Made by a program: the position numbers and the translations under genes. A DNA stretch of 29,525 nt, taken from contig DATLOS010000404.1 in the NCBI GenBank assembly GCA_035536155.1, forward strand, positions 1 to 29,525, given 5' to 3'. The notes beneath the pieces were generated by a model. It was given only the letters and a program-made list of their open reading frames with translations, was not told the origin of the DNA and made no database searches. Source of the stretch: Elusimicrobiota bacterium. Lineage in GTDB: Bacteria; Elusimicrobiota; Elusimicrobia; UBA1565. This document shows, in pieces, positions 1-29,525 of the stretch. Numbering within the stretch: the first letter of the stretch is position 1; every line of letters begins with the position of its first letter.

Positions 1-363
1 GGGATCTAGACAAAAATCTGGGCCAGGTACCGGCGTTTTTGCGCCGGCCTGAACCGCACAAGCGACCGCGGGTGGCCAACCCGGCGGCCGTGGTGACATA
101 CAGGCTCCGTCGGTTGTGGGGGTCGGGCGGCTCGGGAGATCGCCGGGCCGTTATGGTGGCGATCCCCTCCGCCGGCCCGCCGCCGAGGGCGGCCCACTAA
201 CGTCAGGATGCCCGGAATGGGGGCGTGTTTAGCGCCCCCCAGAGCTCGGCAGATTTACTGGAACATTTCCACCAATGGGGTCTATCGCGGAGCGCGGCGC
301 GAGGCGCACGTATACCAGGCTGCGGGTCTTCATTTTTGGTTGGGGTTTTCGCCCCGACCCTAA

Positions 364-2655
364 ATGGCCGCCCCTGGACCGCCCGCCCGCACCGCGTCGA
401 TCGGCGCCTGGTTCGCGGACCAGTACAAGGCCGCCGTCGGCCTCGGAGGGCTCGAAGGCGGCGCAGCTTTCCGGCGGCTCGCCGCGGCGTTCCCTGTCGC
501 GAGCGGCGACCCTGGTCTGGCGTTCCCCGTCACCTCCCGCCAGCGCGTGATGTCCTCGTTCCTCCACCTTAACCTCCGGTACTCGCTGGGCCGGGCCGGG
601 TACGCCTGGCTCGCCCTGACCGCCGCGCCGGCCGCCGGCGAGCCGGCGGTCTTCGCGGTCGCTTTCTGGCGCCGGGGCGGGAACTCGGGAGCTGCCGAGC
701 CCGAGTACATCAGCGTCGCGCCGACCTTCGAGTCCCGCGATGGCGAGTACCGCTCCCGGTGTCTCTGTTACCCGGCCTTCGCGAGGGCGTGCGACGGCTT
801 CGCCCGCGAATTGGCCCCTTTCGAGGAGGCCGTGCTCGCGCTCGCGGCCCAGAGCGTCCTACATCTGGACGCGCGCGCGAGCGACCCTGCTCTGACGGAC
901 CGCGGACGGGAGCTCCGGCTGGCTCCCCTCGCGCTGGCGGCCGCGCTGGCCCTCGACCTGGCGGTGGCGGTCGGCGGCGCCCTGCCCGCCCACACGAGCG
1001 TGCCCTACCTCCACCTGCTGGGCGCCGTCGCGGCGGCGAAGCCGGGGCTCGCCGAGCGCTCTGAAGCGCTCGTCCGGGAAGCGCCGGCGCTGTTCAACGC
1101 CCTCTCCCGCGGCAGCGCTGACAGCCTCCAGGTCACCTGCGGCCTAAAGCTTGTGCCGATGAGCCTGCGGGACGTGATGGAGGTCCGCGACGAGACCTAC
1201 GCCGCGTGGCGCGAGCTCGCCGCGGCGCAAGCCGCGACGGATCTGGTCATCAACTTCGTCGCGCCGGGCGCGCCGCTCCATGGCGGCTGGGCCTACGTCG
1301 AAGGCGCCGGGCCCGACCTCTACGAGAACCCGGCGATGGCCGCCCGCTTCCAGCGCAGCGCGGCCGCGGCCGAGGCGCTCGCCAGCCTGCGCGAAGCTCG
1401 GCGGCGCCTCGTGGCGCTGCCGGCGACCCGCCATGTCGACGAGCTCCGCGCCCGGCTCTTCAAAGACATCACGTTCGCTCAGAGCTTCCTGCTGATGTCC
1501 TCGACCGCGATGCTCCACGCGATGGAGAACGTCGGCTGGAGCCTGGCGGCCCATGGCGCGGTCGTCCGGCGAGCGCCGGCCGCACGGGACGGCTCGGTGC
1601 GCGTGACGTACCTTCGGGCCTTCGCCACCGAGGACGCCGGTGCGCGCCTGCTCTTCGACCTGGCCTACACCGCGCGCTGCCTCCACGCGAAGCTGGGCAT
1701 CGCCCACACGGACCTCCACAGCAACAACGTGACCTACTTCGAGTGGGGCGTGCGCGACCGCCCGCCCGGCTGGCCGCGGACTGGCGAGCCGTTCTACACC
1801 GACCCGCTGGTCGCGTACGTCGCGGGCCCGCGGGGCGAGGCAGACACCTTCCTCTTCCCGGCCGCGGGCGACGGATGCTTCATCGTCGACTTCAGTCGGT
1901 GCATCCTCGGGCCGGCGTTCCGCGCGCGGCTCGAGGCTGGGCACCCGGGGCGCCGCGCCGAGGCCTTCTACCGCGGACAGACCAACCGCGCCCTGCGGGC
2001 GCTCGCGCGCTACGCGCCCGAGTTCGTCGTCCCGCGCCAGGCCGCCCTGAAGGCCGCGCTCCTCTCGAGCTTCGACGCCGCGTTCGAGGTCCTCTGCCTC
2101 GTCGACTTCATCGCGCTCGGCGCGAACGTGGGCGGCGCCCTGCGCGCGATGGCCGCGGTCGAGGAGAAGGGCGACCTCCGGCGCTTCGAGGTCGCGCCGC
2201 GGGTCCTGGAGCTGGCGGCCGAGCTGGAGCGCGCCGCGCGCGAGGCCTTCATCGAGGGGCTCGCCGGCCTCGCCGCCGGCAAGCCGCGGCCGAAGGCCGA
2301 CGTCGGCGCCGGCCTCCTCCGGCAGGTCTTCGGCGACTGGCTGTTCCCGCGCTGGGCTGCGCGCGCGCCGGAGCGCCTCGCCCGCGCGCAGCTCGTCGAC
2401 GCCTTCAACTACAACAACGAGCTGAAGGCGACCTGCAGCGACTACGAGCGCTTCCCGCCGTGGGCGCGGCTCGAGACGATCGCGGAGCACCTCGCGCCGC
2501 TCAAGCTGGAGGCGCTCTTCGAGCGCGGGCCGGACGCCTTCCTCGCCTCGCTCGGCGTCGGGGCGCGCGTCGAGGTCGTCGCCGCCGAGACCCGGGCCGA
2601 GCAGGAGAAGCTCGATGGGCCGCCGGCCGCGACCTCGTCCTGGCTGGACGACTGA
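364..2655 (+). CDS. C717R: ASFV C717R-like protein with protein-kinase-like fold (763 aa)
   Basis: Blocks PEYISVAPTFESRDGEYR, CGLKLVP, AWREL, DLVINFVAP, SFLLMS, LLFDLAY, HTDLHSNNVTY, IVDFSRCILGP, DAFNYNN and FPPWAR match ASFV C717R as recalled. Strong GC3 bias, TAAATG start context, and position directly upstream of an RPB9 homolog as in ASFV. Confidence 0.9.
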   Translation: MAAPGPPARTASIGAWFADQYKAAVGLGGLEGGAAFRRLAAAFPVASGDPGLAFPVTSRQRVMSSFLHLNLRYSLGRAGYAWLALTAAPAAGEPAVFAVAFWRRGGNSGAAEPEYISVAPTFESRDGEYRSRCLCYPAFARACDGFARELAPFEEAVLALAAQSVLHLDARASDPALTDRGRELRLAPLALAAALALDLAVAVGGALPAHTSVPYLHLLGAVAAAKPGLAERSEALVREAPALFNALSRGSADSLQVTCGLKLVPMSLRDVMEVRDETYAAWRELAAAQAATDLVINFVAPGAPLHGGWAYVEGAGPDLYENPAMAARFQRSAAAAEALASLREARRRLVALPATRHVDELRARLFKDITFAQSFLLMSSTAMLHAMENVGWSLAAHGAVVRRAPAARDGSVRVTYLRAFATEDAGARLLFDLAYTARCLHAKLGIAHTDLHSNNVTYFEWGVRDRPPGWPRTGEPFYTDPLVAYVAGPRGEADTFLFPAAGDGCFIVDFSRCILGPAFRARLEAGHPGRRAEAFYRGQTNRALRALARYAPEFVVPRQAALKAALLSSFDAAFEVLCLVDFIALGANVGGALRAMAAVEEKGDLRRFEVAPRVLELAAELERAAREAFIEGLAGLAAGKPRPKADVGAGLLRQVFGDWLFPRWAARAPERLARAQLVDAFNYNNELKATCSDYERFPPWARLETIAEHLAPLKLEALFERGPDAFLASLGVGARVEVVAAETRAEQEKLDGPPAATSSWLDD

Positions 2656-2737
2656 GCCCGGTCACAGGCCGTCGGCCGCGATCTCGCCCTGGCTGGACGG
2701 CTGAGCTCGGTTTGAAGGCTGCCGCGCGGCACCAACG

Positions 2738-28108: not shown

Positions 28109-28146
28109 ATAGCGCCGCGGACCGAGGAGTTTGCGGGGCGACATAC

Positions 28147-29525
28147 ATGGCGAGCCAGACGACGCCCCGCGGCGCGAGCGCCCACGGGCTGATGAAGAAG
28201 ACGCCGAGGCTCTTCAACACCATCACCGTGGGCCGCCTGAGCGCGAACATGCTCGCGTCGATCCGCGCGCACCCCGAGCGGCTCGACCCGGCGACGATCG
28301 CCTACCCCGTGAAGGGGGCCGACCTCCCGCGCCAGTTCGACCCGCGGCGGCCGGACGGCGTCCCGCCGGAGGTCGTCTCGAGCTGGTTCTACCGCGCCTC
28401 CGACGGCAGCACCAACTCGATCCTGAGCGTCCCCCTGGACCAGGCCGGCTGCGGCTCGTGCTGGGCCTTCGCGGTGTCCTCGACCTTCACCGACACGATC
28501 CGCAAGGCGCTGCTGGACCGCTTCCACGAGAAGGCCTGCATCGTCTCGCGCTTCTTCGAGCCGCTGAATGTCTGCACCGGCGAGGCCGGCATGCAGGCGC
28601 CGATCAGCGGCGTCGTCAACGCCGACGCGCGGGCGCTGTACCCTGTCGAGTCGCGCAACCGCATCTCGGCCTACTACACCGCGGCCTTCGCGCCCAAGAT
28701 GCGCGACCGCTGCCCCGTCGTGGGCTTCGAGGACTGCACACACGACCTCTGCGGCCTGGCCGCGACGAAGTGGGCCGCGGCGCAGTACTCGGCCGGCCGC
28801 GACCCCGGCGACCTGCGCAGCCTCCTGGGCTCGCTGGCGACGACCTGCAAGGGCTGCGAGGGGAACCACATCGCGATGCCGCTGATCATGGCCTGCGGCA
28901 AGAAGGGCGACCCCGGGAAGGGGATGCTCCTCATCTCGGACTTCTCGGTCCAGGACTGGGCCTGCCTCTTCGGCGACGAGCGCGACGCGAAGGCCTTCTG
29001 CACGCCCGAGTTCCTCGACCCCGCGCTCGCCGGCCGCCAGGGGCCGCTCTACAAGGCCGACCGCTACGGCTACTACACGCCCGACGACCTGGCCCAGGGC
29101 CCCGCGGACATCGCCTCGATGGAGGAGTGGTTCCAGGCCGACATCTTCAACTACAGCACGATCGCGTGCGGCTTCAACGTCTACAAGTCTTTCGGGCGCT
29201 TCTTCGACCAGAGCCCGAAGGGGGTCTACACAGCGCTCGACTTCCTCGCCGACATCCGCGCCGACCCGGCGGCGAACGCCGAGCCCGAGGGCGGCCACGC
29301 GGTGGCCGTCGTCGGCTGGGGCGAGGAGAAGGTCCCTTTCCCCGGCACGCCGGGCAGTCGCCTCGTGCGCTACTGGATCGTGCGCAACTCCTGGGGGCGC
29401 GACTGGGGCGACGGCGGCTACTTCCGGATCGAGCGCCAGATGGACCTCGCGCTCACCGCGGCCGGCGTGCACCAGCGGGTCAACTTCGAGAGCGAGTTCG
29501 GCAACCTCTACTTCGCGCCCTACCC
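28147..29525 (+). CDS. Papain-family (C1A, cathepsin B-like) cysteine protease, 3' truncated by the window edge
   Basis: Translated by hand because it is absent from the ORF track (no stop). LPRQFD, DQAGCGSCWAF (Gln/Cys), GGHAVAVVGWG (His) and YWIVRNSWGRDWGDGGYFRI (Asn) are in one open frame from ATG 28147. Confidence 0.95.
   Translation, partial: MASQTTPRGASAHGLMKKTPRLFNTITVGRLSANMLASIRAHPERLDPATIAYPVKGADLPRQFDPRRPDGVPPEVVSSWFYRASDGSTNSILSVPLDQAGCGSCWAFAVSSTFTDTIRKALLDRFHEKACIVSRFFEPLNVCTGEAGMQAPISGVVNADARALYPVESRNRISAYYTAAFAPKMRDRCPVVGFEDCTHDLCGLAATKWAAAQYSAGRDPGDLRSLLGSLATTCKGCEGNHIAMPLIMACGKKGDPGKGMLLISDFSVQDWACLFGDERDAKAFCTPEFLDPALAGRQGPLYKADRYGYYTPDDLAQGPADIASMEEWFQADIFNYSTIACGFNVYKSFGRFFDQSPKGVYTALDFLADIRADPAANAEPEGGHAVAVVGWGEEKVPFPGTPGSRLVRYWIVRNSWGRDWGDGGYFRIERQMDLALTAAGVHQRVNFESEFGNLYFAPY

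Follow-up and report, generated by a model that had tools for sequence, protein, structure and literature searches.

The stretch of DNA analysed here, which we call the window, corresponds to contig DATLOS010000404.1 (C404 below) from end to end, 29,525 bp with 0 Ns. We conclude that it is, with high probability, a fragment of a giant-virus genome of the Asfuvirales (extended Asfarviridae) that comes from soil and was mis-binned into the genome of a GC-rich bacterium. At the level of the order, membership of Asfuvirales is very likely. With African swine fever virus (ASFV) the window shares homologs of C717R, of C122R/RPB9, of the NP419L ligase together with the special N-terminal domain of that enzyme, and of F317L. 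The assembly that holds the window is labelled as a prokaryote and comprises 676 contigs and 3.28 Mb at 70.7% GC, the window being its longest contig.

The GC content of the window is 68.8% overall, and its 1-kb slices range from 55.8% (15–16 kb) to 77.5% (27–28 kb). An earlier reading, made from the letters alone (the sequence-only reading), had called the stretch extremely GC-rich and had given two spot counts, 46 of 60 nucleotides at 2161–2220 and 53 of 60 at 22801–22860; on recounting, both are exact. Since long open reading frames (ORFs) are present in all six frames of DNA this rich in G and C, we picked genes by the codon phase of GC3, the GC content of third codon positions. The resulting model holds about 31 genes and is about 90% coding, and every modelled gene is open; no tRNAs were found in the window. 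In the core genes GC3 lies between 0.90 and 0.98, which is near saturation at synonymous sites.

Asfarvirus-type genes of the window

Near the left end of the window stand two genes on the same strand, a homolog of C717R and, starting 82 nt 3' of it, a gene for the RNA polymerase subunit RPB9 (coordinates of all genes are given in Table 1). The C717R protein has 48 homologs, mostly metagenomic, in a search that favours proteins of similar composition; one of them is named BA71V-C717R by its source. A PDB sequence search with this protein returned no match, and Pfam recognised none of the C717R, RPB9 and F317L-like genes of the window. An AlphaFold2 (AF2) model of the C717R protein, built on 20 homologs (predicted local distance difference test, pLDDT, 77), has as its top fold match in BFVD the C717R homolog of the abalone asfa-like virus (E 6e-30, TMq 0.73), followed by ASFV pC717R itself (E 1e-27, TMt 0.85), with giant-virus Ser/Thr kinases lower in the list. 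C717R is described as protein-kinase-like in the literature, and these fold matches agree with that description.

Residues 1–103 of the RPB9 protein match chain I of 8Q3B, the 'C122R' subunit of ASFV RNA polymerase, at E 8e-22 in a PDB search that brought up no cellular Rpb9 at E≤1. Both zinc ribbons are kept (CxxC...CxC, twice). The pairing of C717R with RPB9 recurs in 11 asfar-like IMG/VR loci, where the two genes are immediately adjacent in five and at most 2.4 kb apart in the others; that ASFV itself has the genes in this order is suggested by a gene table only. Ten other genes of the window, including the ligase, the dUTPase and one F317L-like gene, were also looked for in the relatives, and none lies within about 10 kb of C717R there.

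The DNA ligase matches the ASFV ligase structures 6IMJ and 6IMK at E 2e-60, including the KxNG adenylation motif, while the second-best ligase in the PDB reaches only E 1e-13. To 6IMK it aligns in two stretches, the ASFV-specific N-terminal DNA-binding domain (residues 5–115, independent E-value 4e-10) and the catalytic core (residues 148–411, independent E-value 6e-45). A longer ORF of 804 amino acids (aa) that begins at 21529 was rejected as an artefact of GC-rich read-through. Because the phase of GC3 switches near 22400, we place the start of the ligase gene at 22411. The gene upstream, which has no Pfam match, diverges from the ligase gene, and promoter boxes stand back to back in the region that the two share.

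Three paralogs in the window, 37–38% identical to each other, resemble F317L. For the first of them an AF2 model (pLDDT 84) has ASFV F317L as its best BFVD match (E 2e-16, TM 0.67/0.72); the F317L homolog of the abalone asfa-like virus comes second, ahead of iridovirus proteins and a clandestinovirus deubiquitinase. A full HMMER search with a profile of the three paralogs brought up 136 metagenomic clusters, a family in which an FHTHP...PS..D motif is conserved; of the window paralogs, only the first keeps it. Of 20 clusters looked up, none bore an informative name. A word-indexed homolog search with the first paralog returned only the protein itself, and a feature search of the ESM Atlas gave weak JAB hints (scores 0.81–0.85). 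Public gene calls begin this gene at about 7235, for a protein of 347 aa.

One member of the F317L-like family, among the 20 looked up (MDE2095895.1, on a 131-kb contig), is listed under a 'Patescibacteria group bacterium' metagenome-assembled genome (MAG), as a hypothetical protein. That contig is probably another giant-virus contig that was mis-binned as a bacterium.

The sequence-only reading had named all four of these gene types. Each identification was borne out, the two neighbours C717R and RPB9 included, with the bounds of the ligase gene corrected and the F317L-like genes now counted at three.

Sibling contigs in the bin

The bin is scored as 84% complete and 4.6% contaminated, and it does hold bacterial genes, among them ribosomal protein L2 on contig C176 and a fragment of RpoB on C627. 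Alongside these are at least 14 viral contigs, about 92 kb with the window included: C404, C92, C204, C56, C560, C599, C85, C266, C564, C281, C68, C497, C403 and C213. Several of the small ones match ORFs of asfar-like relatives or carry MYND fingers, a domain that was not matched in any of the control genomes of bacteria and archaea. The viral contigs are mis-binned into a GC-rich bacterial genome, and it was probably a similar base composition that brought the window into that bin. When a bin with such a prokaryotic label serves as a species genome, it can seed false 'bacterial' annotations of genes of eukaryotic viruses, such as those for MYND, SET, RPB9 and capsid proteins.

Contig C560 encodes a double jelly-roll capsid protein of the p72 (B646L) type, which matches the ASFV capsid 6L2T at E 1e-127 (residues 69–646) and the faustovirus capsid 5J7O at E 1e-116; no other capsid of the nucleocytoplasmic large DNA viruses (NCLDVs) matches at E≤0.001. 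Its gene (2932–5352) is split after about codon 75 by one group I intron at 3158–3516 (Rfam RF00028, 85 bits, full-length model). Exon 1, from 2932 to about 3157, shares 86–89% identity with the N-termini of relatives whose gene is uninterrupted, and exon 2 ends at 5352. An intron-split capsid gene is known from faustovirus and its relatives as well; C560 has a single group I intron only, and faustovirus has a GC content of 36%.

A C962R-type primase-helicase is encoded on C56. On C403 there is a fragment of a family B DNA polymerase (PolB), with E 3e-93 against the 1206-aa polymerase 8YWG, which from this size only we take to be the ASFV enzyme, versus 1e-7 against cellular PolBs. The sibling contigs thus share with ASFV B646L/p72, C962R and probably the G1211R polymerase. 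Contig C92 carries the catalytic subunit of a poly(A) polymerase, ankyrin proteins and an ADP-ribosylglycohydrolase (8168–9169, E 6e-46), and C204 an NAD:arginine ADP-ribosyltransferase of the ART type (8766–10538, E 6e-7). The last two enzymes could possibly form a pair of writer and eraser of ADP-ribosylation.

The density of runs of five T (T5) was also tried as a classifier of viral contigs. At a cutoff of ≥0.5 runs per kb it hints that up to 139 contigs (675 kb) may be viral, but it was rejected as too noisy on contigs of 2–4 kb.

Source sample and phylogenetic placement

The window is of soil metagenome origin. In JGI sample 3300045391, a 23.4-kb contig opens with genes that match the window's and has a gene call for an identical C717R; a second contig of the same sample (12.8 kb) holds a C717R that is 78% identical. 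According to a preprint, this sample is among the five largest soil metagenomes in IMG/M.

In a tree of C717R, the window and its 78%-identical sister fall in a starred clade of nine members, inside a clade of 40 with mid to high GC, which is itself nested among giant-virus MAGs (GVMAGs) classed as Asfarviridae by Karki et al. 2021 (PMC8005611). In a tree of the capsid, drawn from 53 IMG/VR loci of which about 17 come from GVMAGs listed by those authors, the C560 protein is nested well inside, with GVMAG-M-3300027833-19, GVMAG-M-3300027707-33 and GVMAG-M-3300023184-110 as successive outer branches. In both of these single-gene trees the nesting among Asfarviridae GVMAGs has support of ≥95 in the Shimodaira–Hasegawa-like approximate likelihood ratio test (SH-aLRT).

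Environmental MAGs of the Asfarviridae, from Karki et al. 2021 (PMC8005611) and, as GVMAGs in IMG/VR, from Schulz 2020 (for example GVMAG-M-3300027833-19, GVMAG-M-3300027707-33, GVMAG-M-3300000574-23 and GVMAG-S-1092944-30), share with the viral contigs of the bin the p72-type capsid, C717R, an adjoining RPB9 and a C962R-type primase. They differ in composition, with 17–60% GC as against the 68.8% of the window and the GC3 of 0.90–0.98 in its core genes.

Several points weigh against this assignment and should be stated together. Both trees were midpoint-rooted and searched in a quick mode; they have no outgroup from outside the asfarviruses, leave ASFV out, and join sequences of heterogeneous composition. 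The window is tied to the other viral contigs by bin, composition and type of gene only, and at least two related viruses are present in the source sample, so that the bin may mix them. Neither VLTF3 nor histone genes were found in the bin, and an A32 ATPase appears only as a sub-threshold match; the viral genome within the bin is very incomplete. The model of 31 genes is our own, derived from GC3 phase, and the counts of promoters and terminators given below depend on it. The ends of the window, finally, show neither a genome terminus nor a junction with a host, which bears on whether the DNA is free or integrated.

A rival reading is that the window is not asfarviral. It could instead belong to another NCLDV order, or be a bacterial or chimeric assembly with a few transferred asfarvirus-like genes. 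Asfarvirus-specific matches are confined to about six of the roughly 31 genes, and the genes for the dUTPase, the EsV-1-7 motif protein and the DUF3627 protein have affinities outside ASFV, the EsV-1-7 family being named after the Ectocarpus virus EsV-1; the prokaryotic label of the bin points the same way. This account must, however, explain four independent genes of asfarvirus type, the conserved C717R–RPB9 pair among them, as well as the asfarvirus-type capsid, primase and PolB on sibling contigs. Codon-phase GC3 and the T5 and TTGAA signals described below run along the whole contig. The MYND finger is missing from the control bacterial and archaeal genomes, and bacteria are not known to encode RPB9. 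We consider such an origin very improbable.

GC content among the relatives

According to Karki et al. 2021 (PMC8005611), MAGs of the Asfarviridae span 17–60% GC, with a maximum of 59.45%, and cultured members 31–45%. The sequence-only reading had set the window far above cultured asfarvirids; it lies above the MAGs as well. We found no description in the literature of an asfarvirid above 60% GC, the GVMAGs V2 catalogue (2026) showing the GC of the family only as a figure. Public data do hold uncharacterised relatives at 68–75% GC. These are JGI 3300043764 Ga0456126_0000008 (100.6 kb, 75.1% GC at the sampled locus); JAHZTE010009323.1 of GCA_020050275.1 (13.8 kb, with an ENA copy of 40.7 kb; 73.5% GC, with matching ENA and Logan contigs at 70–74%); IMGVR_UViG_3300017991_000053 (164 kb, 72.2% at the sampled locus); and JBINOJ010001358.1 of GCA_043955495.1 (19.0 kb, 68–69% at the sampled locus). 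To judge by a proxy based on the amino acids GARP and FYMINK, GC-rich genomes may be the source of many more of the 48 C717R homologs, a set that is itself biased towards proteins of similar composition. The documented GC range of asfarvirus-like viruses is widened from 17–60% to about 69–75%.

The C717R proteins of the high-GC relatives are 38–52% identical to that of the window, and mostly an RPB9-sized gene follows directly or one gene on. They represent other species-level lineages, the only close relative being the one with the 78%-identical C717R in the same soil sample. In several, C717R is closely preceded by a fused histone gene and followed by a poly(A) polymerase; in the bin, the poly(A) polymerase is on a separate contig. 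The histone-fold genes (PF00125) encode 409–447 aa and lie at 4861–6090, 4870–6213 and 7945–9288 of the loci that we label L035, L040 and L041, respectively. The window begins about 360 bp upstream of C717R, and the position of the histone gene lies outside it. The sequence-only reading had proposed a distinct lineage of Asfuvirales; the asfarvirus-like affinity stands, and the lineage is not a lone one. The clade is already represented in public metagenomes, and the window is a further environmental member of Asfuvirales nested within it.

It is important to ask, then, what an extreme GC content says about the host. The closest capsid relatives of C560 span 28–63% GC, and those at 57–69% protein identity lie in loci of 28–56% GC. 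In the most similar of these, IMGVR_UViG_3300033412_000003, the capsid protein is 69% identical to that of C560, with a GC3 of 0.18 versus 0.97. Since such close capsid relatives differ so widely, GC content shifts fast within the clade, and the extreme value is a derived trait. There is therefore no basis for the GC-rich eukaryotic host that the sequence-only reading had proposed. It is known, moreover, that the GC content of giant viruses need not follow that of the host. Such rapid change within one capsid-defined clade weakens both guesses at hosts and binning of giant viruses when these are based on GC content.

Transcription signals and functional state

Against this GC-rich background, AT-rich words are conspicuous. 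The window contains 33 T5 or A5 runs, compared with about 4.6 expected, a roughly sevenfold excess, and 16 of the 18 plus-strand T5 runs lie 12–460 nt past a plus-strand stop codon. In ASFV, terminators are poly-T tracts. The word TTGAA occurs between positions −45 and −5 relative to the start codon of 10 of the 31 genes, where 0.64 are expected and at most 5 occurred in 2000 random draws; the near-variants TTTGAA, AACTGAAC and AAATGAAG precede several more start codons. On their placement, the T5 tracts and TTGAA boxes look like viral terminator and promoter signals. The clade is thus a convenient one in which to read transcription signals of the asfarvirus type.

Because these AT-rich words have been kept despite near-saturated GC3, and because the ORFs are intact, we favour a functional virus, as judged from the DNA. 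The sequence-only reading had suggested a live virus or a recent integration: its premise of intact ORFs and signals holds, and the window has no flanks that would tell the two apart.

It is conceivable that the window belongs to a giant endogenous viral element integrated in a chromosome of a GC-rich eukaryote (an alga, an oomycete-like protist or a fungus, for instance), and that its GC content has ameliorated to that of the host. Endogenous giant viruses are known from several protist and algal genomes. The uneven GC content along the window (56–77%), the many eukaryote-like domains (MYND, SET, ankyrin), the dUTPase of plant and chlorovirus type, and window ends that are uninformative are all consistent with integration. 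Yet within the 29.5 kb there is neither a host-like flank nor a spliceosomal intron signal, and no ORF is decaying, in a model whose genes are all open and densely packed. The virus-type T5 and TTGAA signals have survived strong GC pressure. Relatives are found on contigs of 100–460 kb, whose sampled stretches of about 22 kb are gene-dense, with viral hallmarks among the few annotated genes. The spread of 28–63% GC among capsid relatives is, in addition, hard to square with simple amelioration to a host. Thus we regard an endogenous element as unlikely, although less so than a non-asfarviral origin.

Under the preferred reading, a fragment of an asfarvirus-like genome, the parts would fit together as follows. 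The fragment encodes virion and core proteins specific to asfarviruses, namely the kinase-like C717R and the F317L-like proteins of JAMM fold, and also RPB9, one subunit of the RNA polymerase that the virus itself encodes. The ASFV-type ligase and the dUTPase would serve DNA replication and repair, and the MYND, ankyrin, SET, glycosyltransferase and papain-like protease genes would make up a eukaryote-like accessory set. The viral polymerase would transcribe from short AT-rich islands, with a TTGAA-type box 15–30 nt before start codons, and transcripts would end at T5 tracts past stop codons. The extreme GC content would reflect mutational drift specific to the viral lineage and carry no host signature, and the DNA would come from a viral genome that is free or is being actively replicated.

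More tentatively still, at odds that we put somewhat below even, a soil sub-clade of Asfuvirales may have drifted to 68–75% GC, perhaps the highest value for any giant virus, through its own replication and repair machinery rather than through its hosts, so that the surviving AT-rich words would be its promoter and terminator code. If this is true, the clade offers a natural experiment on a shift of viral composition with the proteome held constant.

Accessory genes and the remainder of the window

ASFV, at 39% GC and 170 kb, differs from the window in several respects beyond composition. In fold alignments, C717R and F317L of the window are only 18–26% identical to their ASFV counterparts; we saw none of the ASFV multigene families; and the accessory set (MYND, SET, ankyrin, EsV-1-7) is like that of protist viruses. 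Pfam finds five MYND fingers across four proteins, alone, with a SET domain, or with ankyrin repeats. The dUTPase is not of the ASFV type: in a PDB search it is nearest to the enzymes of plants, chloroviruses and Dictyostelium, and ASFV E165R is absent from its best 60 matches listed, which suggests that the gene may have been acquired separately. The ORF at 5454–7091 (545 aa) has no PDB sequence match.

Table 1. Genes and repeated units located in the 29,525-bp window
Feature	Position	Strand	Basis
C717R homolog, 763 aa, GC3 0.93	364..2655	+	homolog search and fold search
RPB9, ASFV C122R/C105R type, ~70-aa low-complexity C-terminal tail	2738..3262	+	8Q3B chain I
MYND zinc-finger protein, 175 aa	4382..4909	-	PF01753, E 2.5e-9
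F317L-like membrane-anchored JAMM/MPN-fold protein, HxH...S..D motif kept	7046..8278	+	fold search; paralog profile
F317L-like paralog, HxH motif lost	10721..11782	+	paralog alignment
Three tandem gene units, ~725 bp each	11910-12473, 12638-13234, 13307-13930 (within 11865..13930)	+	repeat families D1, D2, D4
F317L-like paralog, HxH motif lost	14045..15196	+	paralog alignment
DUF3627-domain protein, 431 aa	15366..16661	+	PF12299, E 1.3e-9
Trimeric dUTPase, ~120-aa N-terminal extension	16845..17630	+	PF00692, E 4e-38
EsV-1-7 cysteine-rich motif protein	17718..18257	-	PF19114, E 5e-9
MYND zinc-finger protein	19072..19728	+	PF01753, E 3e-10
Gene without assigned function, 265 aa	21551..22348	-	GC3 phase; AACTGAAC box upstream
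ATP-dependent DNA ligase, ASFV NP419L type, 510 aa, GC3 0.97	22411..23943	+	PDB match, GC3 phase
SET-domain protein, C-terminal MYND finger	23940..25310	-	MYND E 5e-6; SET E 6e-4, just below Pfam cut-off
Ankyrin-repeat protein, two MYND fingers	25301..26440	+	Pfam
Family 8 glycosyltransferase (GT8)	26437..27480	+	PF01501, E 2.5e-7
Papain-family (C1) cysteine protease, truncated by contig end, GC3 0.98	28147..29523	+	PF00112, E 2e-20

The region of the three tandem units, at 56–60% GC, is the lower-GC core of the window, and a promoter-like box, AAATTGAAGA, precedes each unit. More broadly, the lower-GC centre (7046–15196, 56–64% GC) is made of paralogs, namely these units and the three F317L-like genes.

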